From Spirochaetota bacterium (GTDB taxonomy: Bacteria > Spirochaetota > UBA12135 > COTS27 > CAXSBA01), in contig OZ255710.1 in the NCBI GenBank assembly GCA_965277105.1, positions 792,730-856,729 of the forward strand: 64,000 nucleotides of DNA, in the 5' to 3' direction. The notes under the pieces are model-generated. The model saw only the letters and a list, made by a program, of their open reading frames with translations. It was not told the origin of the DNA and made no database searches. Shown here one piece after another: positions 5,631 to 28,650 of the stretch. The first letter of the stretch is position 1; each line of letters begins with the position of its first letter. Made by a program: the position numbers and the translations under genes.

Positions 5631-5703
5631 GCCCACATAGCTCAGTTGGTAGAGCACTTGCATGGTAAGCAAGAGGTCAGCAGTTCAATCCTGCTTGTGG
5701 GCT
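5631..5703 (+). tRNA. tRNA-Thr (anticodon GGT)
   Basis: Manual cloverleaf: acceptor gcccaca/tgtgggc, D arm gctc/gagc, anticodon stem cttgc/gcaag with loop atGGTaa, T arm agcag-ttcaatc-ctgct, discriminator t. Confidence 0.9.
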
Positions 5704-5885
5704 TATCGACCAAATCCAACCAACTTGAAATTACTAATAAAATTCCCATAAAAACTGATATAATTATAGCATGCTTATGATTAGTTGTCTAGATTAAAGC
5801 AACTGAAATGAAAATTAAAATTAATAAATTTATCGTATAGTATATTTATTATTTATTTAATATTTTATATTAAAGGAAAAAAATT

Positions 5886-7118
5886 ATGAAAAAAAAATTA
5901 TTAATGATTATAACGATTATAAAGGTCGCCTTGCTAGCCTCGGCGCTCTTTTTGGTCAGCTGTAATGAAAGAAGTGACACAGCAACACCTAGCGGAGATG
6001 ATACCCCTATCACTGACGCAAGTTGTACTTTTGTTTTTACTCCTGGAGAAGACCCAGAAGATGGTGAGGAAAATCCTTTTGATGAGAAAACAGGCGGGAT
6101 TTGTTCGGTCAAAGGCGATGTGGCTACTTTTACAACAACCTTAGCCTTTGAAGGGGAAAATGTCGAGTATACGATTTCTATTAACCAAGCTAATGGAACA
6201 TTTAAAGCTAGTATTGATGAAACTGATGAAATTACTGGTAAAGTTACAGTTAGTAATGATGGGAAAAAATGGGAGTGGGTGTTCCTTAATTCAATTGCTA
6301 CCTTGGAGATTACAGGTGATATTAGCGGAGGTGATACTAGCGGAGGTGATACTGCAACAGCTGAGGGCAAGGTTCTTTTTAAAGAAGGAAATAATGAATT
6401 TGGCGATATCTACGCTGGCGTTACTAATATGACGTGCACCCTTGAAGTGGAAGAAGCCGGTAAATCCCCGATAACCTATAACGGGATTTGCGGTAAAAAC
6501 AATGTGGAGGGATTTATTGCTTTTTACGATAAAGAAGATAACCCGAGCGTATCTGCTCGTTTGATTGTTCCCCATAACCAATACCCTGCCGAAGAAATCG
6601 AATATAGTGAGGCAGAAGCTATAAAAGAGAAAAACCCTACTGCTACTACTAAAGTTAGCCGAGAGAATAACGTCTGGGAAGGGAAAATAACTGATGGGGG
6701 AACTGATCTTTTGAAACTCACCATCACCACCGAAGACATAGTAGTGGCCGCTCCAGCAGATAGTAAGCCCTGTCAACTTGTAAATAAAATAATCGGTTAT
6801 GTTAAAATAAACAACTACACCTTAGACGGAAACTGCGTGCTGGCCCGTGATGCTAATGACGCCGTTACCAAACTAGACTTCACCAGCTCGCTAGCCAACC
6901 CTCCGGTCACCAGCTCTCTCCCAATCGGAGAAAAACAGATCCTTGTCTCCAGAGACAAGATCCCCCTAGTTAAGGATGTCTACCGTATTGGGGGTTATCT
7001 TTATAATGGTATTGGTAATACATTTGCAACTATTGATTTTAATAATGATAATGATAATACATTTACCACAAAAGCAAATTATACTACCATCTACGAATTT
7101 GATATTGTGCTCAAATAA
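5886..7118 (+). CDS. Paralogous surface lipoprotein, 3 Cys-pair modules (A-type 5' end)
   Basis: Signal peptide plus lipobox MKKKLLMIITIIKVALLASALFLVS|C. RBS aaagga lies upstream. Three modules each begin C-x-(F/L) with a second Cys ~17-24 aa later (SCTFVF...GICS; MTCTLEVEE...GICG; KPCQLV...GNCV). The core is shared with six neighbouring genes. Confidence 0.8.
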   Translation: MKKKLLMIITIIKVALLASALFLVSCNERSDTATPSGDDTPITDASCTFVFTPGEDPEDGEENPFDEKTGGICSVKGDVATFTTTLAFEGENVEYTISINQANGTFKASIDETDEITGKVTVSNDGKKWEWVFLNSIATLEITGDISGGDTSGGDTATAEGKVLFKEGNNEFGDIYAGVTNMTCTLEVEEAGKSPITYNGICGKNNVEGFIAFYDKEDNPSVSARLIVPHNQYPAEEIEYSEAEAIKEKNPTATTKVSRENNVWEGKITDGGTDLLKLTITTEDIVVAAPADSKPCQLVNKIIGYVKINNYTLDGNCVLARDANDAVTKLDFTSSLANPPVTSSLPIGEKQILVSRDKIPLVKDVYRIGGYLYNGIGNTFATIDFNNDNDNTFTTKANYTTIYEFDIVLK

Positions 7119-7356
7119 CTAGTTCCTTAAAAAGCGCCCCACGACTAAGCTAAGCTTCTAAACCATTCGTGGGGCGGGGACTTTTCTTCTCCGCCGGGGG
7201 TTGTTCTCCGCCGGGGGTTGCTAAACTTCTTCTATTTCTTCTATTTCCTCTAATAATTTTTTTAAAATTAAAACAACTGAAATGAAAATTAAAAAATTAG
7301 ATTGAATAAATTTATTGTATAATACATTATTATTTAATTTAATTCTAATTTAATTT
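7119..7356 (+). repeat. Conserved inter-paralog cassette (terminator hairpin, GC-rich 17-mer, phased TTCTAT repeats, promoter, RBS)
   Basis: The same ~240-bp block recurs at 8314..8589, 9517..9757, 10975..11160 and (broken) 11440..11677. It contains tctccgccgggggttgt twice in tandem (7188..7221), ttctat at 7230 and 7239, caactgaaatgaaaattaaaa, and TATAAT at 7318..7323. Confidence 0.8.
7135..7176 (+). terminator. Stem-loop after lipoprotein gene (10-bp GC-rich stem, 22-nt loop)
   Basis: cgccccacga (7135..7144) pairs with tcgtggggcg (7167..7176) and is followed by gggacttttcttct. The loop is large and the U-tract weak, so terminator function is inferred. Confidence 0.5.
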
Positions 7357-7371
7357 ATGAGGAGAAAAATT

Positions 7372-8313
7372 ATGACAAAAAAATTATTAATGATTATAAA
7401 AATCACCATGCTAATTTCGGTACTCTTTTTCGCCAGCTGTAACAGTAGCAGCAGTAGCAGCGATACAGCAACACCTAGTGGAGGTGATACTGCAGGTGAT
7501 ACTGCAATTGGAGAGGTCATCGGCACAACTGAGGGCAAGGTTCTTTTAATGAATAGTGGAAACTCTGAAATTGCCGGTGTCCACAATGGCGTTACTAATA
7601 TGACGTGCACCCTTGAAGTGGAAGAAGCCGGTAAATCCCCGATAACCTATAACGGGGCTTGCGATAAAGACACTTGGGAAGCAGTTATTTCTTTTCGCGA
7701 TAAAGAAGATGACCCGAGTATATCTGCTCGTTTGGTTGTTCCCCATACCTATTACTTTACCGAAGAAATCGAATATAGTAAGGCAGAAGATGTAGTCCGA
7801 GACAACCCTACTGCCACTACTAAAGTTAGCCGAGAGAATAACGTCTGGGAAGGGAAAATAACTGATGGGGGAACTGACCTTTTAAAACTCACCATCACCA
7901 CCAAAGACAAAGTAGTGCCCGCTCCAACAGGTAGCAAGCCCTGTCAACTTGTAAATAAAATGATCGTTTTTGAAAAAATAGACAACTACACCTTAGACGG
8001 ATACTGCGTGCTGACCTATGATACTGCTGGCACCACCGTTACCAAACTAGACTTCACCAGCTCACTAGCCAACCCTGCCGTCATCATCTCGCTCCCAATC
8101 GGAGAAACCGACCAGGTCAAAGCAGAAAGTGTACTAGACAATCGCTCCCTTTTTAAGGATGCCTATCTTATTGGGGGTTATCTTTATAATGGTATTACTC
8201 TTGAAACGACTATTGATTTTAATGATAATAAGAATAATACATTTACCGCAAAAATGAATTATGATAATGGTAATGGTGTGGCATCCGAATTTGATATTGT
8301 GCTCACCGAATAA
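7372..8313 (+). CDS. Paralogous surface lipoprotein, 2 Cys-pair modules (B-type 5' end)
   Basis: The ORF opens at 7357, but aggag at ~7362 followed by ATG 7372 gives MTKKLLMIIKITMLISVLFFAS|C. The Ser/Thr/Gly linker precedes the conserved core MTCTLEVEEAGKSPITYNG.C ... NNVWEGKITDGGTDLLKLTI ... KPCQLVNK...LDG.CVL...TKLDFTSSLANP. Confidence 0.8.
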   Translation: MTKKLLMIIKITMLISVLFFASCNSSSSSSDTATPSGGDTAGDTAIGEVIGTTEGKVLLMNSGNSEIAGVHNGVTNMTCTLEVEEAGKSPITYNGACDKDTWEAVISFRDKEDDPSISARLVVPHTYYFTEEIEYSKAEDVVRDNPTATTKVSRENNVWEGKITDGGTDLLKLTITTKDKVVPAPTGSKPCQLVNKMIVFEKIDNYTLDGYCVLTYDTAGTTVTKLDFTSSLANPAVIISLPIGETDQVKAESVLDNRSLFKDAYLIGGYLYNGITLETTIDFNDNKNNTFTAKMNYDNGNGVASEFDIVLTE

Positions 8314-8589
8314 CTAATAACTAGTTCCTTAAAAAGCGCCCCACGACTACTCTCAACTAAGCTGAACTTCTAGGCTTTCTTAGCTACTCGTAGGTGGCTT
8401 GTGGGGTGGTCGTGGGGCGGAGACTTTTTCTCTCCCCCTCCGCCGGGGGTTGTTAAACTTCTTCTATTTTTTCTATTTTTTCTATAAATTTTCTAGATTA
8501 AAGCAACTGAAATGAAAATTAAAATTAATAAATTTATCGTATAGTATATTTATTATTTATTTAATATTTTATATTAAAGGAAAAAAATT
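8314..8589 (+). repeat. Inter-paralog cassette copy (long-loop hairpin 8337..8419, TTCTAT x3 at 8462/8471/8480)
   Basis: cgccccacgac (8337..8347) pairs with gtcgtggggcg (8409..8419). Then come ccgccgggggttgtt, three ttctat hexamers 9 bp apart, and the A-type promoter/leader, which is identical to 5788..5885. Confidence 0.75.
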
Positions 8590-9516
8590 ATGAAAAAAAA
8601 ATTATTAATGATTATAACGATTATAAAGGTCGCCTTGCTAGCCTCGGCGCTCTTTTTGGTCAGCTGTAATGAAAGAAGTGACACAGCAACACCTAGCGGA
8701 GGTGATACTGCAATTGGAGAGGTCATCGGTACAGCTGAGGGCAAGATTTTTTTTAAAGGAAGTGGAAAACCTGAGATTGGCAATGTCTACGCTGGCGTTA
8801 GTAATATGACGTGCACCCTTGAAGTGGAAGAAGCCGGTAAATCCCCTACAACCTATAACGGGATTTGCGGTAAAAGCGACGTGGAAGTAGCTATTTCTTT
8901 TCGCGATAAAGAAGATGACCCGAGTATATCTGCTAGTTTGGTTGTTCCCAATATCTATTACCTTACCGAAGAAATCGAATATAGTAAGGAAGAAACTATA
9001 AAAGGGGAAAACCCTCATGCCACTACTACGGTTATCCGGAAGAATAACGTCTGGGAAGGAAAAATAACTGATGGGGGAACTGACCTTTTAAAACTCACCA
9101 TCAAAACCAAAGACAAAGTAGTGCCCGCTCCAACAGGCAGTAAGCCCTGTCAACTTGTAAAGAAACAAGTCTACTCCGATTATTTAAACGACTACACCTT
9201 AAACGGGAACTGCGTGCTGGCCTATGATACTGCTGGCACCACCGTTACCAATATAAACTTCACCAGCTCGCTAGCCAACCCTCCCGTCACCGCCTCGCTC
9301 CCAATCGAAGAAATCGAGATCACCGAAGACAATCTATCTATTCTGGATGATTATTTCTACCGTATTGGGGGTTATCTTCATGCTAATATTGATTATGTAG
9401 CTAGCCAATCAGGCTCTATTAATGTTTTTAAAAAACCTGCAAATGATAACGAATTTACCGCATTGTTTTATCTGCCAAACACGGTATTGGAATTTGATAT
9501 TGTGCTCACCGAATAA
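8590..9516 (+). CDS. Paralogous surface lipoprotein, 2 Cys-pair modules (A-type 5' end)
   Basis: The first ~37 codons are identical to gene 5886 (MKKKLLMIITIIKVALLASALFLVSCNERSDTATPSG). The core resembles 7372..8313, and the C-terminal third is shared with 13071..13976 (LPIEEIEITEDNLSILDDYFYRIGGYLHANIDY). Confidence 0.8.
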   Translation: MKKKLLMIITIIKVALLASALFLVSCNERSDTATPSGGDTAIGEVIGTAEGKIFFKGSGKPEIGNVYAGVSNMTCTLEVEEAGKSPTTYNGICGKSDVEVAISFRDKEDDPSISASLVVPNIYYLTEEIEYSKEETIKGENPHATTTVIRKNNVWEGKITDGGTDLLKLTIKTKDKVVPAPTGSKPCQLVKKQVYSDYLNDYTLNGNCVLAYDTAGTTVTNINFTSSLANPPVTASLPIEEIEITEDNLSILDDYFYRIGGYLHANIDYVASQSGSINVFKKPANDNEFTALFYLPNTVLEFDIVLTE

Positions 9517-9757
9517 CTAGTTCCTTAAAAAGCGCCCCACGACTAAGCTAAGCTTCTAAACCATTCGTGGGGCGGGGACTTTTCTTCTCCGCCGGGGGTT
9601 GTTCTCCGCCGGGGGTTGCTAAACTTCTTCTATTTCTTCTATTTTTCTAATAATTTTTTTCTTCTAAGTTAAAACAACTGAAATAAAAATTAAAAAATCA
9701 AATTGAATAAATTCATTGTATAATACATTATTATTTAATTTAATTCTAATTTAATTT
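9517..9757 (+). repeat. Inter-paralog cassette copy (hairpin 9533..9574, tandem GC-rich 17-mers)
   Basis: Near-identical to 7119..7356. cgccccacga (9533..9542) pairs with tcgtggggcg (9565..9574). Confidence 0.75.
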
Positions 9758-10974
9758 ATGAGGAGAAAAATTATGACAAAAAAATTATTAATGATTATAA
9801 AAATCACCATGCTAATTTCGGTACTCTTTTTCGCCAGCTGTAACAGTAGCAGCGACCCAGCAACGCCTAGCGGAAAAGAAAATACCGGAAATGATACCAC
9901 TATCACTGACGCAAGTTGTACTTTTGTTTTTACTCCTGGGGAAGACATAGGAAATCAAATACCTACTTTATGACAAAACCGACGGGACTTGTTCGGTCGA
10001 AGACGGTGTGGCTACTTGGAAACGAAGCGCTTTAGCGGGAAATAGCGATATATACGGTTTCTTTTAACCAAGCTAATGGAACATTTAAATATATATATGA
10101 TGCTGATGGAGTTAATCAATTAAATCTGGACTTTCCTGGTACAGTTACAGTTAGTGATGATGGGAAAAGATGGGAGTGGAAGTCGTCTGATTCAACTGGT
10201 ATCATTGAGATTACAGGTGATAGCGGAGGTGATATTAGCGGAGGTGATACTGCAATTGGAGAAGTCATCGGCACAGCTGAGGGCAAGGTTCTTTCTAAAG
10301 ATCTTGGATTTGGTAGAAATACCTACGATGGCGTTACTAGTATGACGTGCACCCTTGAAGTGGAAGAAGCCGGTAAATCCCCGATAACCTATAACGGGAT
10401 TTGCGATAAAAACAATGTGGAGGGATTTATTGCTTTTTACGATAAAGAAGATAACCCGAGCGTATCTGCTCGTTTGACTGTTCCCCATAACCAATACCCT
10501 GCCGAAGAAATCGAATATAGTGAGGCAGAAGCTATAAAAGAGAAAAACCCTACTGCTACTACTAAAGTTAGCCGAGAGAATAACGTCTGGGAAGGGAAAA
10601 TAACTGATGGGGGAACTGATCTTTTGAAACTCACCATCACCACCGAAGACATAGTAGTGGCCGCTCCAGCAGATAGTAAGCCCTGTCAATTTGTAAATAA
10701 AATAATCGGTTATGTTAAAATAAACAACTACACCTTAGACGGAAACTGCGTGCTGGCCCGTGATGCTAATGACGCCGTTACCAAACTAGACTTCACCAGC
10801 TCGCTGGCCAACCCTGCCGTCATCATCTCGCTCCCAATCGGAAAAAGCGACGAGATCAGCTCAGACAATCCAGACAATCGCTCCCAGTTTAAGGATACCT
10901 ATTGGGGATTATTGGGGATTATCTTTATGCTAATGGTGTGGCATCCGAATTTGATATTGTGCTCAAATAACTAG
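9758..10974 (+). pseudogene. Chimeric lipoprotein paralog with at least 3 frame disruptions
   Basis: The B-type signal peptide is followed by a gene-5886-like first module. The frame changes near 9950-9970 and again near 10055-10065, and the homologous protein is readable in three successive frames. A 10-bp tandem duplication attggggatt x2 (10901..10920) plus an internal deletion wrecks the C-terminus. Confidence 0.75.
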
Positions 10975-11160
10975 TTCCTTAAAAAGCGCCCCACGACTAC
11001 TCTCAACTAAGCTAAGCTTCTAAATCATTGGGGCGGGGACTTTTTCTCTCCGCCCTCCGCCGGGGGTTGTTAAACTTCTTCTATTTCTTCTATTTTTTCT
11101 ATAAATTTTCTAGATTAAAACAACTGAAATAAAAATTAAAAAATCAAATTGAATAAATTA
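10975..11160 (+). repeat. Inter-paralog cassette copy (truncated at its promoter end)
   Basis: Same hairpin, ccgccgggggttgtt, ttctat and caactgaaat elements. It breaks off after ttgaataaatta, where the fragment patch begins. Confidence 0.7.
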
Positions 11161-12092
11161 TTGATTTTAATGATAATAAGAATAATACATTTACCGCTGT
11201 AACAGTAGCAATACAGCAACACCTACCAATACTAACGGAACAGGAGATAACGGAGGTGTACTACTACCCCTAATGCAAATTGGTTCAAGATGAAAATAAG
11301 CATCTTAGAGAATAATGCGAATTTGATATTGTGCTCAGCGGCAAATGTCGAGTATAAGTTTAAATAACTAGTTCCTTAAAAAGCGCGTCCACGACTGCTA
11401 CCTTGGAGATTAAGCTAAGGCTTCAATTAAAGGGCAAGGTTCTTTCTAAAGATCTTGGATTTGGTTCGTGGGGCGGGGACTTTTTCTCTCCGAAGTGGAA
11501 GAAGCCGGTAAATCTCCGCCGGGGGTTGTTAAACTTCTTCTATTTCTTCTATTTTTTCTATAAATTTTCTAAGATTAAAGCAACTGAAATGAAAATTAAA
11601 AGAGAAAAATTAATAAATTTATCGTATAATATATTTGTTATTTGAAATTTAATATTTTATATTAAAGGAAAAAAATTATGAAAAAAAAATTATTAATGAT
11701 TATAACGATTATCACCAAAGGCCAACCCTGCCGCCTTGCTAGTTTAAGGATACCTCGGCGCTAACGACTATTTTTGATAATAAGAATAATACATTTACCG
11801 CAAAAATAGTAGCTAAACAGTATTGTGCTCAACAACAGGGCCTAGCGAAGAAGCTAAGCTTCTATGGGGCGGGGACTTTTTCAAGGCGTGTTAAATTTCT
11901 TTTTTCTATAAAGCAAAATGAAAATTAAAATGAACATAATATATTGATACTAAAGTCTACAAGGAAAAAAATTATGAAAAAAAAATTAGTAGTATGACGT
12001 GCACTGCTAGCCGAGGTGGTTGCAAGAAAACGGTATGGACAAGGCGTGATTTCTTTTGAAGACTAATGACATTGATACTAAATATGTAGTTA
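11161..12092 (+). other. Patchwork of 10-40-bp fragments of the lipoprotein genes and cassettes (non-coding)
   Basis: Recognisable pieces include ttgattttaatgataataagaataatacatttaccgc (=8213..), aaatgtcgagtata (=6160..), gctaccttggagatta (=6297..), agggcaaggttctttctaaagatcttggatttggt (=10283..), gaagtggaagaagccggtaaatc, two A-type ATG starts (11678, 11974), and terminator/promoter pieces. No long ORF is present. Confidence 0.7.
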
Positions 12093-12826
12093 GTAGTATG
12101 ACGTGCACTCTCGAATGTGGAAAACGGTAAAGATTACTAATTTGTAGTAAAAACAAGATGGAAACAAAGATTACTTTTGAAGATAAACCAGTTGACCCGA
12201 ACGTGTCTGCTGATTTGATTATTGTCAGTTCTAAAGGCATCGAAAAATATAGTAAGGCAGAAGATGTAGTCCGAGACAACCCTACTGCCACTACTAAAGT
12301 TAGCCGAGAGAATAACGTCTGGGAAGGGAAAATAACTGATGGGGGAACTGATCTTTTAAAACTCATCATCAAAACCCAAGACAAAGAAGTGACCGCTCCA
12401 GCAGGTAGTAAGCCGTGTAAATTTCTAAAAAAAGAAATCAATAATTATAGTTTTGACAACTACACCGCAGAGGGAAACTGCGTGCTAACCTATGATACTG
12501 ATGGCACCACCGTTACCGACATAGACTTCACCAGCTCGCTAGCCAACCCTCCCGTCACCGCTTCTTTCCCAGTAGGAAGTGGAGATACTCCCATCACCGA
12601 AGACAATCAATCCCTTTTTAAGGATGTCTACCGTATTGGGAGTTATCTTTATGAAACTATTGATTTTATAATTGGAACAGCAGATCCAATTATTAGTATT
12701 GTTAAAAATCCTAATAATAATATATTTAATTTAGAATTTAAATACGCTGGCGGTGAAGTATTTCACTTTGATATTGAACTCACCGACGACGGAACTGGAG
12801 ATAGCGAAACTAGAAGTGACGGATAA
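12093..12826 (+). pseudogene. 5'-degraded lipoprotein paralog (no signal peptide; intact 3' two-thirds)
   Basis: agtagtatgacgtgcactctcgaatgtgg is a decayed MTCTLEVEE motif that runs into stops. ORF 12158..12826 then encodes the conserved NNVWEGKITDGGTDLLKL, KPCKF...EGNCVL and FTSSLANPPVTAS core, with a unique C-terminus. Confidence 0.65.
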
Positions 12827-12906
12827 CTAGCACAGTTGTCGCTGAATTCGCTTTAGCCGGCTCCAACTAGTTTTTTGAATGATTTTCAACTAACTAGTAA
12901 ACTCTG

Positions 12907-12950
12907 ACCCTCAAAGGATTTTCTTTCCTGTCTACTCCTTTGAGGGTTTT
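12907..12950 (+). terminator. Rho-independent terminator
   Basis: accctcaaagga (12907..12918) pairs perfectly with tcctttgagggt (12936..12947) and is followed by ttt. Confidence 0.7.
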
Positions 12951-13070
12951 CTAAATTTCTTCTATAAATTTTCTAGATTAATAAAACACTCTGAAATGAA
13001 AATTAAAAATTAAATTGAATAAATTCATTGTATAGTTATTATTTAATTTTAATTTATGAGGAAAAAAGCT

Positions 13071-13976
13071 ATGATAAAAAAATTATTAATGATTATAAAA
13101 ATCACCATGCTAATTTCGGCACTCTTTTTCTCCAGTTGCAGAAGCAGCGACACAGCAACGCCTAGCGGAGGTGATACTGCAACAGCTGAGGGCAAAGTTT
13201 TTTTTAAAGAAAGTGAAAAATCTGAACTTGGCAATGTCTACACTGGCGTTAGTAATATGACGTGCACCCTTGAAGTCGAAGAAGCCGGGGAATCCCCGTT
13301 AACCTATAGCGGGATTTGCGGTAAAAACGATCTGGATACAACTATTTCTTTTCACGATAAAGCAGTTGACCCGAGCATATCTGCTCGTTTGGTTACTATC
13401 AGGAACGCTTTCACTACCACATTCATCGAATACAGTAAGGTAGAAGCTATAAAAGCGGAAAACCCTGGTGCCATTACTAAGCTTAGCCGGAGTAATAACG
13501 TCTGGGAAGGGAAAATAACCACAGCTGATGGGAAAATTGATCTTTTAAAACTCACCATCAAAACCCAAGACAAAGTAGTGCCCGCTCCAGCAGGTAGTAA
13601 GCCCTGTCAACTTGTAGGGAGAAAATCCTTCAACGGTTCCTTAGTCAACTACACCTTAGACGGAAACTGCGTGCTGGTCCGTGATGCTAATGACGCCGTT
13701 ACCAATATAAGATTCAACAGCTCGCTAGCCAACCCTCCCGTCACCGCCTCGCTCCCAATCGAAGAAATCGAGATCACCGAAGACAATCTATCTATTCTGG
13801 ATGATTATTTCTACCGTATTGGGGGTTATCTTCATGCTAATATTGATTATATAGCTATCCAATCAGGCTCTATTAATGTTTTTCAAAAAGCTGCAAATGA
13901 TAACGAATTTACCGCATTGTTTTATCTGTTGTCAAGCACGATATTCGAATTTGATATTGTAATCAACGATAACTGA
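13071..13976 (+). CDS. Paralogous surface lipoprotein, 2 Cys-pair modules (B-type variant 5' end)
   Basis: The ORF opens at 13056. aggaaaaaagct followed by ATG 13071 gives MIKKLLMIIKITMLISALFFSS|C. The core is conserved and the C-terminal third is near-identical to 8590..9516. Confidence 0.8.
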   Translation: MIKKLLMIIKITMLISALFFSSCRSSDTATPSGGDTATAEGKVFFKESEKSELGNVYTGVSNMTCTLEVEEAGESPLTYSGICGKNDLDTTISFHDKAVDPSISARLVTIRNAFTTTFIEYSKVEAIKAENPGAITKLSRSNNVWEGKITTADGKIDLLKLTIKTQDKVVPAPAGSKPCQLVGRKSFNGSLVNYTLDGNCVLVRDANDAVTNIRFNSSLANPPVTASLPIEEIEITEDNLSILDDYFYRIGGYLHANIDYIAIQSGSINVFQKAANDNEFTALFYLLSSTIFEFDIVINDN

Positions 13977-14203
13977 AAGCACCCAATAAATATTGTCCTT
14001 AGTCAACTTCTGCATAAAAAATGCTGAATGAGCACTAATCATTCAGCATTAATTACCCGGCTTTCAACTAGTCACATTACTTCGAGGAAGCTTGCTCTCG
14101 GGAAAATTGAAAAATCTTAGCTAAATTTATAATTATTTCACTAAACTAAAAAATCCCAATCGCATTACGTGGTGTAATTTTATCACCCAAAAAAATACAA
14201 TCT

Positions 14204-15880
14204 ATGACAAAAAAATTATTAATTATCCTAAAAATCACCATGCTAATTTCTCTGCTCTTTTTCGCCAGCTGTAATGAAAGTAGCACTAGCAGCGAAAGCA
14301 TAAAAAAAGAAACTCATTACCCTTGTCAGCTAAAAGAACGCCCCAACAACATAACCTATGACGGAACGTGCACGAAAAACTCTGATGAGATGGAAATTAC
14401 TTTTATTAAACAAGCCGACGAAAACTCCCCAAAAGTAGAAGCTTCGATTAATCTTTATGGAGACTCCGCGTTTCAAGTTGGTGCTACTGACAAAAAAGCA
14501 GCAATTAAAAACGCCGAGCCTTCAATCAGTATGGAGCAAAACTCTCGAGAGCAGACTACTGGAACTGCTAGTCTATGGGTTGTGAAGTTTTTTAAATCAG
14601 ATAACACATGGTCCGATTACTCTTTCGAAATCACTGACTCATCAGAAGCTCAGGACTCCAGCAAATTATCAGGAGCGCCCTGTGCTGTTGATGTTACGCT
14701 GCAGGAATCTTTTAATAGTATTTCATTAAAAGGAAAATGCGTAGCAACCTATGACGACAGTGCTGACAGTGCTATTACCCAACTGCTTTTCACTAGTCTT
14801 CAAACTAATCCCGTTATCGAGGCCTCCATTGCAAAAACTGGATTTTTTTCTGGGAACGCCACCTACAAAGTTGCTGGAGTCCCTCAAATAGACTACAGCA
14901 GTAGCTCTTCTTTTAGCAGAGTTGATACAAATCCTAGTGTAATACAATTTAGTTTAAGTAACGCTGATTTTATCATTACAATTAAAACCAGTGAAACTCC
15001 CCCCGCAATTAATGATGATGAACATTCCCATGATGATGAACATTCCCATGATGATGAACATTCCCATGATGATGAACATTCCCATGATGATGAACATTCC
15101 GCCGAAGAGCTTCCAGTCACTAAGTTTAGCGGTATCGCTTGCGAGCTACTGGATAATTTAGAAGAAAATTCCAGCCAAACCTACAAAGGGACTTGCTCGA
15201 AAAACGCCACCGATACGGCAATTGTTTTTACTACTGACGCCGGGATTAGTCCGGTTAGAACCGCTTCGATTAGCATAGTTGATCCGAATAATCGACTTAA
15301 CCGGGGAGCCTTTACCTACACCGTTGATGGGGTTACTCAAAAAAAACAAGAGGAACACACCGATCACTCTCATGACGAAGATGGGCATTACCACCCTCCT
15401 CCTTTTGAGTTTAGCAAACGGAAAAATAACCTATGGGAAGCGGGAATAACCACCGAAAGAAACCCGGACCCGGTTACTTCACTTCAAATCACCACCACAG
15501 ATAGTCCAGCGAATAGCACCCCACCAGCTAATGAGCCTTGTCGATTTGAGTTGTCAAAAATAAATCGTATTTTTATCCAATTAAACTATGAATTAGATGG
15601 AAGCTGCTTCCCAACCTACGCTGCTGATGGCAGCACCATTACCAAGCTAGACTTCACCAGTTCGCAGAAGAACCCCACCGTCAAGGTCTCGGCCAATACG
15701 CTCGATGATACTTTTAATTATGAAGTTGGAGGGGAAGATGTAGCAGGCATTAACGACAATACTTCAATCACTACTAAGTTTAATGGCAACCAAAAAGAAA
15801 TTGCAGTAAGCCTTCGAGATAGCGCAGTTGAATATAGCACAGGAATAATATTATCATTTAGTCTCCAACTCACCGACTAA
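14204..15880 (+). CDS. Large paralogous lipoprotein, 4 Cys-pair modules, with His/Asp/Glu-rich repeat
   Basis: Signal peptide MTKKLLIILKITMLISLLFFAS|C. Four modules are visible (YPCQL...GTC; APCAV...GKC; IACEL...GTC; EPCRF...GSC). The family motifs NLWEAGITTE and TKLDFTSSQKNP are present. It carries (DDEHSH)x5 and a second HTDHSHDEDGHYH patch. Confidence 0.8.
   Translation: MTKKLLIILKITMLISLLFFASCNESSTSSESIKKETHYPCQLKERPNNITYDGTCTKNSDEMEITFIKQADENSPKVEASINLYGDSAFQVGATDKKAAIKNAEPSISMEQNSREQTTGTASLWVVKFFKSDNTWSDYSFEITDSSEAQDSSKLSGAPCAVDVTLQESFNSISLKGKCVATYDDSADSAITQLLFTSLQTNPVIEASIAKTGFFSGNATYKVAGVPQIDYSSSSSFSRVDTNPSVIQFSLSNADFIITIKTSETPPAINDDEHSHDDEHSHDDEHSHDDEHSHDDEHSAEELPVTKFSGIACELLDNLEENSSQTYKGTCSKNATDTAIVFTTDAGISPVRTASISIVDPNNRLNRGAFTYTVDGVTQKKQEEHTDHSHDEDGHYHPPPFEFSKRKNNLWEAGITTERNPDPVTSLQITTTDSPANSTPPANEPCRFELSKINRIFIQLNYELDGSCFPTYAADGSTITKLDFTSSQKNPTVKVSANTLDDTFNYEVGGEDVAGINDNTSITTKFNGNQKEIAVSLRDSAVEYSTGIILSFSLQLTD
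15014..15103 (+). repeat. Perfect 18-bp in-frame tandem repeat (gatgatgaacattcccat, ~4.8 copies) encoding DDEHSH
   Basis: Read directly: units start at 15014, 15032, 15050 and 15068, with a partial fifth at 15086. Confidence 0.95.
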
Positions 15881-16418: not shown

Positions 16419-17273
16419 TTGTCAGCTTCACCTTCTCCCCAAAAAAAGCCTATACAATTAAACAAATCTTTTAAATTTAAAGATAAAAAACATGAAAGCA
16501 AAGATAATTACATCTGCGGTTATCTCATTTTATTCGATATTATTGATTCTACTAAAAGGAAAGAAAAATACAAAAAAGACGATGAATGGTTAGAACATCT
16601 AAATTTATTTTATTCAGAATTTTACCAATTCTCAAATCAACTAATTAAAAAAATTACAGAAGAAGTTAAAAAAATTACTTTTCTTGATGATAAAGCAGTT
16701 ATTAAAACCATTGGCGATATGGGTTTTTTGTTTTTGCCTTTTGAAAAACAAAAAACTCCTAATTATGACGAAGAAAAAAAGGAAGGGATCCCGAATATTT
16801 CAAAACTTATTCTAGAGAAAACAATGAATTTCTGTAATTACAAGTCAGGAATTCCTGAATTAAAACTCAAAACTATTATTACTTATTTATATCAAGTTTT
16901 TTTAATCAATTTAAATAAGGGAGAAAACAAATTTGATATCGTCGGTAAAGGGATAGATTTTTCTTTTCGACTAGAAGGTTTTGCCAATTCTTCTTGCATT
17001 ATTTTAAATAAATATCTTGTTGAATCTATAAAAAAGCTTGGAGAATGTGCTACTAATAAAACTAATGAAGATCTGAGTATTAATTTTTCTAATACACTAT
17101 ATGACATCGTCAAAGTTAGAAAAACAATTAGAGGCTGGGATGATGAAAAAGAAGAGTTTTATTTTCTTACCAATCCAGAAATGACTAAAGATACGTATGA
17201 AAAACGCGAGGACTTTTTAGATGAAAATTCTATTTACGCAGAGTTGTTTTTAAAACACGAAAAAAGACCCTAA
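16419..17273 (+). CDS. Stand-alone class III nucleotidyl cyclase-like protein (no sensor or effector domain)
   Basis: YLILFDIIDSTK matches the first metal-Asp motif (FxDIxGFT). IKTIGDMGFLF matches the second (IKTIGD). FDIVGKGIDFSFRLEGFA aligns with G..VN.AaRLE, with Asn replaced by Asp. The C-terminal VRKTIRGWDDEKEEFYFL resembles the terminal beta-hairpin. The only in-frame start is TTG at 16419, directly after a TATAAT. Confidence 0.6.
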   Translation: MSASPSPQKKPIQLNKSFKFKDKKHESKDNYICGYLILFDIIDSTKRKEKYKKDDEWLEHLNLFYSEFYQFSNQLIKKITEEVKKITFLDDKAVIKTIGDMGFLFLPFEKQKTPNYDEEKKEGIPNISKLILEKTMNFCNYKSGIPELKLKTIITYLYQVFLINLNKGENKFDIVGKGIDFSFRLEGFANSSCIILNKYLVESIKKLGECATNKTNEDLSINFSNTLYDIVKVRKTIRGWDDEKEEFYFLTNPEMTKDTYEKREDFLDENSIYAELFLKHEKRP

Positions 17274-17671
17274 CCCCCACTCCCCAACCTCACCCCTAAA
17301 TAAATCCCCCCAGCCAACGCCGCCACTCCCACCACTGGTATCCCAATCACCGCCACGTAATACCAAAATTCCCCCCGGTTTTTAAGGTAATTATTTTCCG
17401 CCTCGAAGTCGTCGATTAAAAGATTTTTCTCATTTACGGACAAGGCGATAATCTCCTGTTTTTCCGCCTCCAACTCATCCACCCGGCGAATTAAAAGCGG
17501 ATATAACTCTATTATCCGAATCATCCGCAAAACTTCGCTAGGCGAATTTAAATCAATCTTTTTATGATAAAACGGCTCGGGGTATTTTTGTAAGTCGTTA
17601 CCAAGTAATAACGTTGTTGCTAATAGTGACAATGTAATTACTCTCACTAATAATGATAGCTTCATTTTCAA
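17270..17671 (-). CDS. Bitopic membrane protein (N-terminal signal/anchor, coiled coil, C-terminal TM), last gene of the lysis block
   Basis: MKMKLSLLVRVITLSLLATTLLLG at the N-terminus and FWYYVAVIGIPVVGVAALAGGIYLGV at the C-terminus. No Cys is present. It overlaps the upstream gene by 74 nt in another frame. Confidence 0.4.
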   Translation of the reverse strand: MKMKLSLLVRVITLSLLATTLLLGNDLQKYPEPFYHKKIDLNSPSEVLRMIRIIELYPLLIRRVDELEAEKQEIIALSVNEKNLLIDDFEAENNYLKNRGEFWYYVAVIGIPVVGVAALAGGIYLGVRLGSGG

Positions 17672-17846
17672 ATTCTTTTTTAGTTTCTAATTGCTTATTT
17701 ATAATGATTTTTTCTTGCTCGAATATTTCTTTTTTCCGTTCGGCCAATTCGCTCGTTTTATCTCGACTAAAAAAAAGGTAGGTGCCACTTATCCCCAAAA
17801 TAGCACCCACCAAAAAGGCTATAATGATAATCTTATAGCCCCGCAC
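17598..17846 (-). CDS. N-terminally anchored coiled-coil protein (i-spanin-like architecture)
   Basis: 82 aa. TM helix IIIIAFLVGAILGISGTYLFF is followed by a charged helical segment. Its position is distal in the lysis cassette. Confidence 0.35.
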   Translation of the reverse strand: MRGYKIIIIAFLVGAILGISGTYLFFSRDKTSELAERKKEIFEQEKIIINKQLETKKEFENEAIIISESNYIVTISNNVITW

Positions 17847-18168
17847 GTTTTTCTCTCCTTAGAAAAAAATCATCGAGGGTTTTTAAAAAACTACCGTCGG
17901 CGACTGTCCTCGTCGTTACTCTTAAAAGCCAAATCCCACTCAAAGCAATTAAATTATATTTCTCTATATCTTTAATAAATCCAGTTACTCGATTATGCCG
18001 CCCCCCAGTCCAAACCCCGCCTTCGAACTCAATCGCTAACTTGTATTTTTCGACATAATAATCTATTCTAAATTTTCTATTATCTAAGAATTTATACTCT
18101 TTCGTGTAATCAATTTTTTTTTGTTTAAAATAGTTTTCTATAAGTAGTTTTGCTAAATCGGAGTTCAT
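17833..18168 (-). CDS. Small Vsr/DUF559-like PD-(D/E)xK-fold endonuclease-like protein
   Basis: FRIDYYVEKYKLAIEFEGGVWTGGRHNRVTGFIKDIEKYNLIALSGIWLLRV follows the D...(I/V)E.(D/E)G...H...D.(R/K)...L...G..(L)R pattern of DUF559/Vsr-type nucleases. Confidence 0.45.
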   Translation of the reverse strand: MNSDLAKLLIENYFKQKKIDYTKEYKFLDNRKFRIDYYVEKYKLAIEFEGGVWTGGRHNRVTGFIKDIEKYNLIALSGIWLLRVTTRTVADGSFLKTLDDFFLRREKRAGL

Positions 18169-18181
18169 TTTTTTACCGTTA

Positions 18182-18532
18182 TCAATTAATGTCTTTCGCT
18201 TCTAATTTTTTCACTCGCACTCCCTTTTTCTTAAAAAAAGAACTAAGGACTTTAATTAAATCGTCATCACTAATATTAAGGCTTATTCTTAAAACCGTTA
18301 TCCCTTCTTCAGCAAAAAGATTATCTTTTCTATAATTGCTTTTTTTATTTACCTCAATTTTCCCATTGATATTTTTCCCTATCATAATCTCAATAGCCGT
18401 TTTGTATTGATGAAGGTAAAAATCAGTTTTATACTTTACGCTACTAGTAAACAAATAATCAAAAACATAAGGTATGCTATTTTTGCTGAAATACTTTCTT
18501 ATTTTATTTTTTAATTTTCTAACTTTTATCAT
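18182..18532 (-). CDS. Second small DUF559-like protein (possibly degenerate active site)
   Basis: KTDFYLHQYKTAIEIMIG...YRKDNLFAEEGITVLRI has the same spacing as the neighbour. It lacks the (D/E)G after the IE, and its tail is basic. Confidence 0.35.
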   Translation of the reverse strand: MIKVRKLKNKIRKYFSKNSIPYVFDYLFTSSVKYKTDFYLHQYKTAIEIMIGKNINGKIEVNKKSNYRKDNLFAEEGITVLRISLNISDDDLIKVLSSFFKKKGVRVKKLEAKDIN

Positions 18533-18771
18533 TTTTTTTTATTTATAATGTTTTTTAAAAATCCCGTCTTCTCCACCGTGTCGGCTCCGATCCACGCCCC
18601 AATTAAAAGGCACAACGGGCTAATGATTATCTCATAAAACTCATTTAACGCCTTTGACTTATCGAACAAATCCAGCCCCACTAAAACAAAGTTATAAACC
18701 ATCCCGCCGACTAAAATACTCGTAACCATCAAAGCAACGCTAAACCTTTTCCAGCTTTTTTTATTTTCCAT
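18529..18771 (-). CDS. Holin-like two-TM protein
   Basis: 80 aa with two hydrophobic helices (FSVALMVTSILVGGMVYNFVLVGL; IIISPLCLLIGAWIG) and a basic C-terminus. It lies immediately downstream of the endolysin and its stop overlaps the next gene. Confidence 0.45.
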   Translation of the reverse strand: MENKKSWKRFSVALMVTSILVGGMVYNFVLVGLDLFDKSKALNEFYEIIISPLCLLIGAWIGADTVEKTGFLKNIINKKK

Positions 18772-18789
18772 TTTTTAAACTCCTTATTT

Positions 18790-19269
18790 TTAGACGTTCC
18801 AATTTTTGTATTTTGTCATTCCGTTTTCTCGATACGCCCTTAAAATCTCTTTTCGATTATTTCCCGAAGTAAAACTTACATGAACCCAGGCAGGATTTTT
18901 ATCATTTCCAAATTCCCAGATTAGTTGGTCGAAATCCAGCTCGTCTTTTATCGTGTTGAAAATATCCGCGTTGGTTAAAACCGATTTTTTATTATCCATA
19001 TCAATGTCGATAGCTTCGCCTTTACAGTGCTGACTTTTAGTGCTCCCGCCAATGGCCGCGTTAAGGACCGGACTACGATACCCGCTGCTAATGAAAATCG
19101 GCACTTCGCACAGTTTTCGTAACGGCTGAAAAAGATATTTTGCTAAATATGATAAATTAGCCAGTGCTTCCTTTGTAGGATAATTATCAATCCCTAATCG
19201 TAAGGCAGTAGTTGATTTTATAGCTTCCCCCAGGCTTAAATTTTCCGAGAGTTTCATCGCTTTCATCAT
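18790..19269 (-). CDS. Peptidase M15A-type cell-wall hydrolase (endolysin)
   Basis: SGYRSPVLNAAIGGSTKSQHCKGEAIDI ... NPAWVHVSF matches the H-x6-D...H zinc triad and surrounding motif of M15 (VanY / L-Ala-D-Glu peptidase-like) phage lysins. Confidence 0.8.
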   Translation of the reverse strand: MMKAMKLSENLSLGEAIKSTTALRLGIDNYPTKEALANLSYLAKYLFQPLRKLCEVPIFISSGYRSPVLNAAIGGSTKSQHCKGEAIDIDMDNKKSVLTNADIFNTIKDELDFDQLIWEFGNDKNPAWVHVSFTSGNNRKEILRAYRENGMTKYKNWNV

Positions 19270-19442
19270 CTAAACCACGCTCCTAAAAACTGAAGCACGC
19301 TCCCTTTTGCTATTAACTTTTCTCCTAAGGCCAAAAGCAAAATAGCAATTAAAATATTTATCTTGTGATTAATCTTTCTATTCAGCCTATGGTATTTTTT
19401 CATGGCGCTCATTTCACGGTTGGTTTTCAGATGAAAATTCAT
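19266..19442 (-). CDS. Small single-TM protein, paralog of 19482..19733 (not in supplied ORF track, 58 aa)
   Basis: Hand translation: MNFHLKTNREMSAMKKYHRLNRKINHKINILIAILLLALGEKLIAKGSVLQFLGAWFR. Its TGA overlaps the endolysin ATG (ATGA). The C-terminal 45 aa align with MVNKYDRLNNKLNILIVVLVLSLGENLGVLKFLGALFKL. Confidence 0.5.
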   Translation of the reverse strand: MNFHLKTNREMSAMKKYHRLNRKINHKINILIAILLLALGEKLIAKGSVLQFLGAWFR

Positions 19443-19481
19443 AGTAGATTTTTTTTTTCAACTTTAAAGGCCTGGTTATTT

Positions 19482-19733
19482 TCATAATTTAAACAACGCC
19501 CCTAAAAACTTCAACACCCCCAAGTTTTCCCCTAAAGACAAAACTAAAACCACGATTAAAATGTTGAGCTTGTTGTTGAGCCTATCGTACTTGTTAACCA
19601 TGGCTAATATCTTTCGCTCGTTTTCTTTTATCCTATCCATCGCCCCAGTGGAGCCGTTGCCGTAAAGGTCGTGCTTGATTGTCTGCACGTCTTCTTTGAT
19701 TTTGGCATTGGTTCGTTTGGTTGGATTAGTCAT
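19482..19733 (-). CDS. Small single-TM protein (holin/antiholin-like candidate)
   Basis: 83 aa. A hydrophilic N-terminal half is followed by the TM helix LNILIVVLVLSL. It lies between the tail fibre and the endolysin, and its paralog is immediately downstream. Confidence 0.45.
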   Translation of the reverse strand: MTNPTKRTNAKIKEDVQTIKHDLYGNGSTGAMDRIKENERKILAMVNKYDRLNNKLNILIVVLVLSLGENLGVLKFLGALFKL

Positions 19734-19736
19734 TTT

Positions 19737-20934
19737 TTAGCGGTATTTTATGAAAGCGCAGAGCTGGACGCTTTTCGGGCGGGTTTCGCTGGAGCCTTCG
19801 CTACTAGTATTTCTTGTTTCACCACTATTAAAATCAGTGTCGTCAAAATTCACAAAAAGTTGTTGTGCATATGGCCCTCTATTTTGTCTAAAAACTTTAA
19901 CTTCATGATTATGCTCTTCAAACGTATCTTTCTGATAATAAAGAATATTGAAATAACCCCTATTCGGATCCACTCCTTGCCCTTCGTCTAAGGCCCTAAA
20001 AAAAAGCCCTTGAAAGTTCGGCAGGCGGAATTTCTTTTGTCCGTTTACGGATTGAATTCTAAAATATCTATTATAGATGTAACCTGAATTATAACTACCA
20101 TTAAAAATACTATCTGTAATATCTTGACTGTGTCTATAAATCGCAGTACTGATAGCACCTCCCCCTGTCCCTAGCCCTGTTTCTACTATAATTTTATTAT
20201 CCGCATTATGTTGCGACAATATCCAATCATACAAATCTAAATAAGCAGAATTATCAACAGCGTCATAAACAGTTCGTCCGTCTAGTTTTAAATAATTAGG
20301 TGGTCGTAAAGTAGTTGGGAAATAGGCTATTTGCCCGATGTCCTCCTTGTTCCTCGTTTCTAAATCATTTATCCTTTGCTCTAAACGATTAATCAATTCG
20401 CTATTGTTGTCATCGACTACTTTTATCTGCTCTTCAACTCCCTGTATCGTGGTGTCGTTGATAGTTTTTATATTATTTTTAATGCTCTCTACTTGGTTAT
20501 TTATTCCTGGGATTTTCGTGGTGTTGATGGTGCTTATCTGGCTATTTATCCAATGGATTTTATTTTCATTAATGTCTTTTATGGCATCTTGGTTGCTGGT
20601 TATTTTTTGGTTAATTCCCGGGATTTTATTGTCAACTACTTTTATTTTATTTTCAATCTCCGGCACCTTGGTGTCGTTGAGATTTTTTAGGTTGTTTTTA
20701 ATCTCCGGGATTTTTTCATCAAAAATTTCATCCCTTTCGCTCTTAAAGTATTTGCTCCACTTTTGGACTTTCTCCATCATCCCGTTAAACTCCTTGGCGC
20801 TTAAGGCCTGCCCTTCTCTAAAGCCTTCTTTGCGGATAGCTTCACTGAGGTCGGTTTTTTTGTCGTCGGGGAGGTTGTCCGCCGAAAATGTCGACGGTGT
20901 CGCTCGGGGGTTTAATTTCGTTGTCGTTGGTCAT
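19737..20934 (-). pseudogene. Tail fibre paralog 2 (collar-domain C-terminus) with N-terminal frameshift
   Basis: The ORF-track product starts at internal MMEKVQKW (20780). Upstream, ATG 20934 encodes MTNDNEIKPPSDTVDIFG, then one extra C (cc at 20879..20880, against gttgtcgccgaaaat in fibre 1) shifts the frame. The shifted frame reads DNLPDDKKTDLSEAIRKEGFREGQALSAKEFNG, homologous to fibre 1. The C-terminus is GQIAYFPT...SSETRPKSVQLCAFIKYR. Confidence 0.65.
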
Positions 20935-21014
20935 TCATTATCTCCTTTTTTTTTACAATATTTTTCTTAATTTTTTTCCTTAATTTTTTTTTTATTTTTA
21001 TAATTCATCTCATT

Positions 21015-21971: not shown

Positions 21972-21986
21972 TAGTTTATCCTTTGA

Positions 21987-23997: not shown

Positions 23998-24289
23998 TAG
24001 TTATCGTCTCCACTTTTAGGGGAATGCTGTTGATTTTTAAGTCAATGATTAATTTATTTTCTTGGTTCTTAATATCAATAATTTCCGCTTCCACGATCTC
24101 CTCATCGTTTAGTAAAAAATCCTTAATATCCTTTTCAATATAAAACTCGTTAAGCGGGTTATGAAAATATTTGAACCAATCAAAACCTAAATTATCATTA
24201 CTTAAACAATCCCCTTTTTTAATTTTTAAGCGGTTAATCACCCGCTCTTGTAGTTGTTCTTTTTCATTTAATAAATAACTGTTAAACAT
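23987..24289 (-). CDS. gpW/gp25-like baseplate wedge protein
   Basis: 100 aa. The size, its position before the J-like gene, and the pattern RLKIKKGDCLSNDNLGFDW...IKDFLLNDEEI fit the GPW_gp25 pattern. Confidence 0.5.
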   Translation of the reverse strand: MFNSYLLNEKEQLQERVINRLKIKKGDCLSNDNLGFDWFKYFHNPLNEFYIEKDIKDFLLNDEEIVEAEIIDIKNQENKLIIDLKINSIPLKVETITNEK

Positions 24290-24355
24290 TTTTTTTTGCT
24301 ACTTTTTTTTTATTGTTCGATTTTTTATTGTTCGATTATTAATCATTTGATTTTT

Positions 24356-24661: not shown

Positions 24662-24684
24662 AATTTTTTTCTCCTTTATTATTT

Positions 24685-26142: not shown

Positions 26143-26169
26143 GCCTGATGTTTTCCTTAGTTCAATAAT

Positions 26170-28067: not shown

Positions 28068-28240
28068 TTCTCCTCTACTATCTAAAATACCATACGCCGG
28101 CGAAATTATCTTTTCATACCTTTCGCAATCTAACTCTTTAACCCTTAAAATACAGCTGGCATTGCTCCCATTTTTCTTATAAAAAACCTACATGCTGGTC
28201 TTGTATCATTATGTAATCCTTTATTACTTGCTAACTTTGC

Positions 28241-28639: not shown

Positions 28640-28650
28640 GGTTTACTCCT

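Follow-up and report, generated by a model that had tools for sequence, protein, structure and literature searches.

Why should a bacterium with a small genome carry, head to tail, a series of lipoprotein genes that are nearly identical in some segments and sharply different in others? The question is raised by a locus within 64,000 nucleotides (nt) of DNA from a Spirochaetota bacterium (positions 792,730 to 856,729 of contig OZ255710.1, assembly GCA_965277105.1), the whole of which we call the window and to which coordinates refer unless another contig is named. Here repeated DNA begins at about 5785, some 80 nt past a tRNA-Thr gene, and continues head to tail on the + strand to 15880. A first-pass annotation of the window had described, from 5788 onward, a same-strand tandem array beside a tRNA that contained five intact genes, two pseudogenes and a patch of fragments, and our tRNA, open reading frame (ORF) and unit-fragment coordinates all agree with that description. 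The answer that we favour, and consider probable rather than secure, is that these genes form a lineage-specific family of exported, probably surface-located lipoproteins, whose tandem members exchange both segments and whole units by homologous recombination and so provide a variable repertoire.

The array comprises seven units, W1 to W7, all on the + strand. Five of these are intact ORFs: W1 (5886-7118, 410 amino acids [aa]), W2 (7372-8313, 313 aa), W3 (8590-9516, 308 aa), W6 (13071-13976, 301 aa) and W7 (14204-15880, 558 aa), the last being a divergent paralogue (about 29% identity). The encoded proteins are built from cysteine-pair modules that we call N, A and B. W4 (9773-10974) is a frameshifted copy of a three-module gene; the broken copy starts at 9758 or 9773 and resumes in another frame at 10342-10974. 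W5 (12093-12826) is a 5'-truncated pseudogene that has no signal peptide, in which the sequence MTCTLE at 12097 is followed by a break and then by an ORF (12158-12826) for the end of module A and all of module B. The 5' ends of the units are of two types, A (as in W1 and W3) and B (as in W2), and the A-B-A-B alternation initially proposed for them holds for the first four units.

That the copies in this array are recombinant mosaics is supported by several features of their alignment. A sliding-window map of nearest neighbours reveals abrupt switches of closest relative along each gene. In 9 of the 15 within-window pairs the longest run of identical sequence exceeded that found in all 1000 permutations of the alignment columns, and tracts of 81-211 identical nt occur in pairs that are just 70-87% identical overall. 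Non-orthologous pairs share 23 identical tracts of 80 nt or more, several of which link units of the window to units that lie in different contexts on a second, metagenomic copy of the locus (contig L001, described below). For example, the 5' end of W1 matches W3 over 108 identical nt, its N module matches an L001 gene (L001-Ld) at 90-100%, its residues 227-336 match W4 over 211 and 115 identical nt on either side of one mismatch, and its tail is unique. The last third of W6 is 96-100% identical to that of W3, and the two are 59-92% identical elsewhere, which bears out the claim that the genes at 8590 and 13071 share this third. W2 and W5 have a 106-nt identical tract in common. Even the divergent W7 begins with 72 nt that are 94% identical to L001 members, preceded by 60 nt that are unrelated, and this is a sharply bounded tract that has been either exchanged or constrained. 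The first-pass annotation had also singled out the gene at 9758 (W4) as a mosaic with the first module and core of the gene at 5886 (W1); the core is indeed 97-100% identical to that of W1, and the first module is merely 62-86% identical in nucleotides. Its diagnosis of segmental gene conversion stands as far as the recombinant mosaics are concerned; gene conversion is not, however, separated from unequal crossing-over by these data, and the gain and loss of units between haplotypes argues for both.

This gain and loss is revealed by L001, an 11.6-kilobase (kb) metagenome contig from the ENA that consists of nine same-strand genes of the family and nothing else. Positions 8415-11222 of L001 and 8410-11163 of the window are about 98% identical over some 2.7 kb, a block that spans W3 (orthologous to L001 8595-9521), W4 and their cassettes. 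Upstream of this shared block the two loci are not identical and differ in unit content: L001 has at least six units there and the window has two before the tRNA is reached, and the six L001 units match those of the window at the level of paralogues only (77-85%). The boundary between haplotype-specific and shared DNA, at about 8410, falls in an intergenic hairpin. Within the block, the L001 orthologue of W4 (9757-11025 of that contig) is an intact gene of 422 aa, relative to which W4 has one additional nt at 9967, another at 10050 and a 75-bp deletion at 10927. Since the housekeeping proteins of this genome are singletons, found on one contig in a collection of 15 billion proteins, L001 would most simply be a second haplotype, from the same population or from one nearly identical to it.

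The DNA between the genes is as instructive as the genes themselves. When the 14 regions upstream of units in the window and in L001 were aligned, a conserved cassette was found in 13 of them, W7 being the exception. In order, the cassette contains a stop codon, a GC-rich hairpin, GCGCCCCACGA...TCGTGGGGCG (about -41 kcal/mol), with a U-rich stretch, then a second hairpin, a variable (TTCTTCTAT)n repeat, an extended -10-like box TTGTATAAT (TCGTATAGT in the A-type), an (ATTTA)n repeat and finally the ribosome-binding site (RBS) GAGGAG, 7 nt before the ATG. One such cassette, delineated by the alignment, by RNA folding and with the repeat finder TRF, lies between W1 and W2 (7119-7371). The A-type cassette upstream of W1 (5785-5885), with the promoter-like box TCGTATAGT and the RBS AAGGAA, is 98% identical to those that precede W3 at 8590 and its orthologue at L001 8595. 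The cassette between W2 and W3 (8314-8589) is a variant with a long hairpin, and it is here that the haplotype boundary lies; one further cassette follows W4 (10975 to about 11159), and the one before W6 (12827-13070) is a diverged version. In front of W7 there is a non-canonical spacer (13977-14203) with a 12-bp hairpin of its own (14020-14050).

With a hairpin, a promoter-like box, an RBS and an ATG for each of them, the units of the core array (W1-W6 and all those of L001) look like independent genes and not like silent cassettes, and each of them would be transcribed separately if these signals function as their sequence suggests. A generic scan for promoters and terminators was uninformative, with 34 sites against 28.7 expected. 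Within the cassettes, copy number varies solely for (TTCTTCTAT)n and (ATTTA)n. The cassette before W4 (9517-9772) differs from that of its L001 orthologue (L001-Lh) by a 16-nt indel in a T/C-rich tract (9642-9657) and by one 5-nt (ATTTA)n copy (9733-9737) between the -10-like box and the RBS; it is conceivable that such indels in the promoter region affect expression.

To what family, then, do these proteins belong? In the public data searched, the family is a sequence orphan confined to one lineage. Neither Pfam nor NCBIfam yielded, for the seven members scanned, any match at E<=1 that approached a cut-off, and no array member matched PHROGs. When 5.8 billion protein clusters were searched by word index, 10 proteins emerged, six of them on this genome's own contig of 1,685,129 bp, all within the array, and four on L001; the same type of search with the 558-aa W7 returned family members only. 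A profile of the core, compared by HMMER with all 1.84 billion representative proteins, retrieved the same family proteins plus a single false match (P0011), which was rejected as a relative on the grounds that it matches only the low-complexity GGDNT linker. There was nothing in a scan of GTDB genomes with W2, no relative in 2.9 million viral contigs (IMG/VR) or in the JGI metagenome contigs, none in the PLSDB plasmids by tblastn, and nothing among PDB sequences in a profile search even at E=10. The bacteria that appear closest to the host (see below) are included in the protein libraries searched and are without the family. The first-pass annotation had been unable to name the family, and the sequence and structure searches agree in mapping it to no known lipoprotein family.

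The architecture of the proteins is nonetheless clear in outline. By a rule-based reading of the N-termini, every intact member starts with a K-rich n-region and a hydrophobic core that lead to an L/F-V/A/S-S-C lipobox, and so carries the features (charged n-region, hydrophobic core, lipobox Cys) by which bacterial lipoproteins in general are recognised. The signal peptides of the family end in LVS, FAS or FSS directly before this Cys, in forms such as MKKKLLMIITIIKVALLASALFLVS and MTKKLLMIIKITMLISVLFFAS, in accordance with the (V/A/S)S consensus given for them beforehand. All the other Cys residues are paired (each protein has 2, 3 or 4 such pairs), which is what one would expect of proteins in an oxidising compartment outside the cytoplasm, and the pairs may form disulfides. 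The second Cys of each pair lies within a (Y/L)-x-G-x-C motif. The spacing within pairs, 15-26 residues in the window and 15-31 when L001 is counted, is wider than the 17-24 originally reported, and the rule that modules begin C-x-(F/L) fails for one module that starts C-A-V. With two pairs each, W2, W3 and W6 consist of modules A and B; to these W1 adds an N-terminal module (N, A, B), and W7 has four pairs. As the N- and C-terminal halves of W7 align collinearly (E=5e-9 over 174 residues), W7 is a duplicated A-B pair, A-B-A-B. The idea that all members carry 2-4 copies of one module therefore needs amendment: the count of Cys pairs is right and the halves of W7 are related, but profiles of N, A and B compared by hhalign gave P values of only 0.004-0.05, and we do not claim from sequence that these modules are homologous to each other. 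Both the near-invariant blocks noted at the outset and the variable blocks between them are real; the former include MTCTLEVEEAGKSP.TYNG.C, NNVWEGKIT..DLLKLTI and NYTLDGNC..FTSSLANP. Short repeats occupy the linkers. In W1 a 15-nt tandem repeat (6314-6353, 2.7 copies by TRF) encodes a GGDTS linker, which is expanded to about 10 copies in the L001 gene at 5737-6810, and in W7 a perfect 18-nt repeat (15012-15100, 4.9 copies by TRF) encodes a His-rich (DDEHSH)n linker; the His-rich repeats of W7 are prone to slippage.

An AlphaFold model of the W2 core (pLDDT, the predicted local distance difference test score, 80.7; pTM, the predicted template-modelling score, 0.80) is all-beta and folds into two modules, each with about eight strands and a single short helix. 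The blocks of low sequence entropy coincide with its high-confidence strands, and the blocks of high entropy with loops, a hairpin tip and a low-confidence C-terminal sub-region. In our reading of the strand limits, the first Cys pair of module A would be in register on the first hairpin of the model. A model of full-length W1 was of insufficient quality (pLDDT 62), and its Foldseek search yielded nothing but noise.

The structural model also brings in one of the two alternatives that survive best, namely that these are ligand- or metal-scavenging surface lipoproteins, comparable to the haemophore HphA, the transferrin-binding TbpB or the factor-H-binding fHbp; the array would then supply a choice of binding specificities, and its variation would track the diversity of ligands and not evasion of immunity or phages. 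The top PDB targets of the core model in Foldseek are indeed HphA (8glo, with E=1.6e-3, probability 0.91 and TM-score 0.25, and also 8gmm), the "surface lipoprotein" 3hoe, TbpB lobes and fHbp, and targets of similar kinds came up for the full-length model. In addition to its perfect fivefold DDEHSH repeat, W7 has a second His-rich stretch, HTDHSHDEDGHYH (15390-15440), and there are weak NCBIfam matches to His-rich metal proteins, so that its His-rich linkers may bind metal. However, there was no Foldseek match at E<=1e-3 in either the PDB or the BFVD (where only non-significant matches resembling sliding clamps appeared), the TM-scores of <=0.26 with a root-mean-square deviation of about 16 Å do not establish a common global fold, the PDB profile search was empty, and within the family the His-rich tracts are confined to W7. 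We therefore regard this explanation as unlikely; moreover, it is a rival as to function alone and could hold together with the recombination mechanism that we favour.

Is the diversity of the array adaptive at all? A second alternative, which seems to us equally unlikely, is that the array is a birth-and-death cluster of paralogues under largely relaxed constraint, decaying as it diversifies, in which exchange follows merely from similarity and adjacency and variation has no adaptive value. Two of the seven window units and the patch are broken, and the family is confined to one lineage, both of which fit such a history. The ratio of nonsynonymous to synonymous divergence (dN/dS), obtained by Nei-Gojobori counting, a simple and crude method, bears on both sides. 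Over the whole core, five disjoint gene pairs gave dN/dS values of 1.04-1.67, near 1 in two of the five, with a pooled value of 1.24 (Fisher p=0.03). By region, the signal peptide stands at 0.44 and the conserved end of module A at 0.66, with values of 1.2-1.7 elsewhere. Of the 231 columns in the core, 74 are invariant, and synonymous divergence is 0.18 in the invariant and 0.19 in the variable columns; this equality indicates that purifying selection on the protein, and not homogenisation alone, maintains the scaffold. The pattern would thus fit diversifying selection on the loops of a constrained scaffold. Against unchecked decay, furthermore, 12 complete ORFs (five in the window and seven in L001) are intact over the two haplotypes and have lost none of the 74 invariant residues and none of the Cys pairs, their lipoprotein signals being intact as well, and the copy that is broken as W4 is whole in L001.

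These observations can be assembled into the scheme that we prefer, that of a recombining family of variable lipoproteins. Its members would be lipid-anchored all-beta proteins on a scaffold of two core Cys-pair modules (A and B), with an optional N module or a duplication of A-B, and each head-to-tail gene of the core array would be a transcription unit of its own. Homologous recombination between units, by segmental gene conversion and by unequal crossing-over, would reshuffle the variable segments into new mosaics and add or remove whole units, with the near-identical intergenic and signal-peptide cassette and the conserved blocks inside the genes serving as templates for the exchange; slippage in the short linker repeats would alter linker length as well. 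The result would be a repertoire of variants of a single exposed protein, encoded together, which differs between the cells or strains of a population, with the variation concentrated in the predicted loops. Whatever recognises the envelope, be it a host, phages or grazers, probably maintains this diversity by exerting diversifying selection. The surface exposure of the proteins is putative in this scheme, as is any biochemical activity.

Several points weigh against this scheme, at least in its stronger forms. The ORFs scanned around the array yielded no recombinase domain, no inverted repeats that might form part of a switch were found, and promoters and start sites have no variable homopolymer tract, the poly-A at the starts (A9 or A7) being the same across units and haplotypes. 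The variation is consequently population-level diversity and not demonstrated programmed variation, and "antigen" is only one possible meaning of it. The pooled dN/dS of about 1.2 (p=0.03) is compatible with a mixture of constrained sites and relaxed constraint. The ends of exchanged tracts favour sites beside conserved blocks, especially FTSSLANP (p of about 0.001), but this test is partly circular and we discount it. W7 has neither the conserved upstream cassette nor a clear RBS. Finally, just two haplotypes are compared, and the window possibly bears assembly artefacts.

The flanks of the array suggest a further origin for it, as the cargo of a mobile element at the tRNA-Thr gene, for example prophage lipoproteins that block superinfection or modify a receptor. 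The tRNA gene (anticodon GGT; 5631-5703 on the + strand; ARAGORN, with 68.6 bits in Rfam) forms the left boundary of the array, beyond which lies a MASE10-HAMP adenylate cyclase (Pfam), and the GC content of the array (0.38-0.41) exceeds that of its immediate flanks (0.31-0.33). Downstream come two ORFs without a match to any protein family and then, at 17833-32123 on the minus strand, a cluster of phage-derived genes that includes small HNH-like ORFs (17833-18532), an M15 peptidase (18790-19269), two tail-collar fibre proteins (19737-21971), baseplate proteins including baseplate J (21987-24289), a tape-measure-like protein (26940-27599), a tail sheath (28651-29658), a portal fragment (30425-31273) and a ParB-like fragment (31881-32123). 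The cluster, in which we saw neither capsid nor terminase nor integrase, is a prophage remnant or a tailocin-like element; in a tblastn comparison with phages, its baseplate J matched solely haloarchaeal and coliphage proteins, at 25-31% identity. In spite of this setting, a mobile origin of the array is very improbable. Its genes, on the strand opposite to those of the phage remnant and two unrelated ORFs away, are adjacent to the remnant and not inside it; they have no PHROG match and no relative in viral contigs, plasmids or the BFVD; no integrase was seen; and the 3' end of the tRNA gene is not repeated in the window as an attachment site would be. Of the two separating ORFs, 16419-17273 (+) and 17270-17671 (-), neither has a Pfam, PHROG or PADLOC match. 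The former has a sub-threshold NCBIfam match to the Legionella metaeffector MesI (E=4.7e-5, 22.9 bits against a cut-off of 300), and the latter has a signal-peptide-like N-terminus and a hydrophobic C-terminal segment. The genetic code is the standard one, TGA terminating 8 of 45 ORFs. Antisense ORFs of 144-166 aa occur on the minus strand of the array at 5870-6370, 6291-6776, 10192-10689 and 12007-12441 and have counterparts in L001; most probably they arise simply from the codon composition of the genes on the sense strand.

There remains the patch that separates the cassette after W4 from W5 (11159-12092, within the interval 10975-12092). It consists of exact unit fragments of 17-40 nt, joined with overlaps of 0-2 nt, in which two collinear series are interleaved, one being the 3' end of a gene and the other the 5' part of the next. 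Either the patch has really decayed, through deletions at microhomologies or through template switching, or the consensus is at fault and two structural haplotypes were piled up on each other; in both cases the intact genes are unaffected. The W4 frameshifts, both pseudogenes and the patch may all be artefacts of assembly or consensus. It is tempting to extend this to the whole locus and to ascribe the mosaic and the haplotype difference to the assembly of a repetitive region from a mixed population, since the interleaving is what a consensus hopping between two read populations should produce, L001 ends at the position equivalent to the patch and W4 has two single-nt insertions relative to an intact orthologue; yet we give this the least credence of all, as 12 complete, uninterrupted genes on two independent contigs keep every conserved residue, the contigs agree at about 98% over their shared 2.7 kb, the mosaic tracts preserve the reading frame over hundreds of nt, and, to judge from contig names and coverage tags, the assemblies are probably of long reads, any one of which would cover much of the 10-kb array. 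An anti-phage defence system was rejected, there being no PADLOC match at E<=0.01.

What kind of organism carries this locus? Its genome is small, a single contig of 1,685,129 bp with about 35% GC. The named relatives of its SdhA protein are all Cytophagales, at 73-74% identity, but three closer relatives, at 83-84%, share with it the synteny of sdhCAB and citrate synthase (window 58879-63366; 9323-19274 of contig L082), and in these closest relatives flgK, flgL and fliW adjoin the sdhCAB-citrate synthase genes. A placement of the host in the Cytophagales was therefore rejected. A pattern-limited scan of GTDB with GlpK gave matches of about 50% identity in many phyla, and the literature on MASE10 points to no particular taxon. 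The flagellar genes, proteins resembling Lsa33 and LipL45 and strong Shine-Dalgarno sequences argue against Bacteroidota and hint at a leptospire-like spirochaete with a small genome, a placement that is as yet unproven; the host is probably flagellated. Two contigs of these nearest relatives, L082 (1-9132, minus strand) and L083 (3723-9046, minus strand), both from one metagenome (ERZ21736675), have five and three tandem FecR-domain paralogues, respectively, just upstream of sdhC, with near-identical N-termini and weak matches to the Leptospira Lsa33 and LipL45 models. Besides the array studied here, the lineage has in them another tandem set of secreted proteins whose copy number varies. The window also encodes two sugar-uptake and glycoside hydrolase (GH) clusters, an MGH1-like GH with an ABC (ATP-binding cassette) transporter at 33386-38567 and an ABC transporter with a GH36 alpha-galactosidase and a GH42 beta-galactosidase at 47026-58712, as well as glpK, a glpO-like gene and complete sdhCAB with citrate synthase, which together point to a respiring and saccharolytic way of life, small as the genome is.

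If the recombining lipoprotein family is what we believe it to be, the array is an independent, sequence-orphan example of a common strategy, that of tandem variants of an exposed lipoprotein reshuffled by homologous recombination. Its host would be under strong recognition pressure from a host of its own, phages or grazers, and structural work would gain a small beta-module scaffold with mapped variable loops. As the two haplotypes apparently come from long-read metagenomes, the rate and mode of shuffling should be measurable from reads that already exist. The general understanding of such systems is unchanged by the array, which is a new family at a known kind of locus. A bolder version can also be put forward, though it is speculative and in our opinion doubtful: the Cys-pair module would be a new fold family and the array an active system of combinatorial variation in a previously unsampled, reduced-genome, leptospire-like lineage, the different arrays within a population would reflect frequent and possibly targeted cassette shuffling rather than slow strain divergence, and the patch would be a footprint of template switching. 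We know of no gene-conversion-based surface variation described in that leptospire-like group.

Among known loci, the closest in its working is the lpl cluster of the Staphylococcus aureus nuSa-alpha island, which is described as diversifying through recombination at a conserved region inside its tandem lipoprotein genes (Tsuru and Kobayashi 2008, PMC2568036). In both loci lipoprotein paralogues are arranged head to tail, conserved sequence inside or between the genes is the site of homologous recombination (proposed, in our case), variable regions are shuffled and the number of units varies between strains. In both, too, the intergenic region and adjacent gene ends act as a conserved unit, here apparently the cassette of hairpin, promoter-like box and signal peptide. 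This is a resemblance in working and not in membership: there is no sequence relationship, Pfam (which holds an lpl-type model) and NCBIfam giving no match, and our proteins consist of predicted all-beta Cys-pair modules with several conserved blocks, whereas lpl has one central block. The host here is uncultured, apparently flagellated and has a small genome, and our comparison involves two haplotypes as against more than 10 genomes for lpl.

The variable lipoprotein loci of the mycoplasmas (vsp of Mycoplasma bovis, vlp of M. hyorhinis, vpma of M. agalactiae and vsa of M. pulmonis) have near-identical 5' untranslated regions and signal peptides followed by divergent mature parts, which are mostly extended repeats, and they switch by site-specific inversion or by slippage of a promoter poly-A. 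Our array shares with them the conserved 5' region and signal peptide and the presence of short in-frame repeats of changing length. It differs in that neither a recombinase nor a variable tract was found around it, and in that its repeats are limited to short linkers (6314-6353 and 15012-15100), the remainder being predicted folded beta modules; the standard code and the peptidoglycan hydrolase of the phage remnant, which implies a walled host, also set it apart. In the spirochaetal systems, vls/vlsE of Borrelia, vmp of the relapsing-fever species and tprK of Treponema pallidum, one expression site is altered by unidirectional conversion from promoterless silent cassettes. Like them, the array forms mosaics by segmental exchange between tandem paralogous segments, with variable regions set between invariant ones; unlike them, each of its core units appears, from its sequence, to be equipped with an ATG, an RBS, a promoter-like box and a downstream hairpin.

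The Slam-type surface lipoproteins of Neisseria and Haemophilus (TbpB, HphA and fHbp), the recurring top Foldseek targets, are antigenically diverse, lipid-anchored, all-beta and multi-domain, features that our proteins would share. The matches to them are nonetheless non-significant (E>1e-3, TM<=0.26), there is no sequence similarity, no significant structural match points to their fold of a handle and an eight-stranded barrel, their genes are single-copy, and no translocon gene was seen in the window. The FecR-domain (LipL45/Lsa33-like) arrays of the host's nearest relatives belong to an unrelated family (Pfam FecR) at another genomic position and have no lipobox Cys in the N-termini read. 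Nevertheless, they come from the same lineage as the array analysed here and, like it, they are tandem sets of secreted paralogues with conserved N-termini and a copy number that varies.

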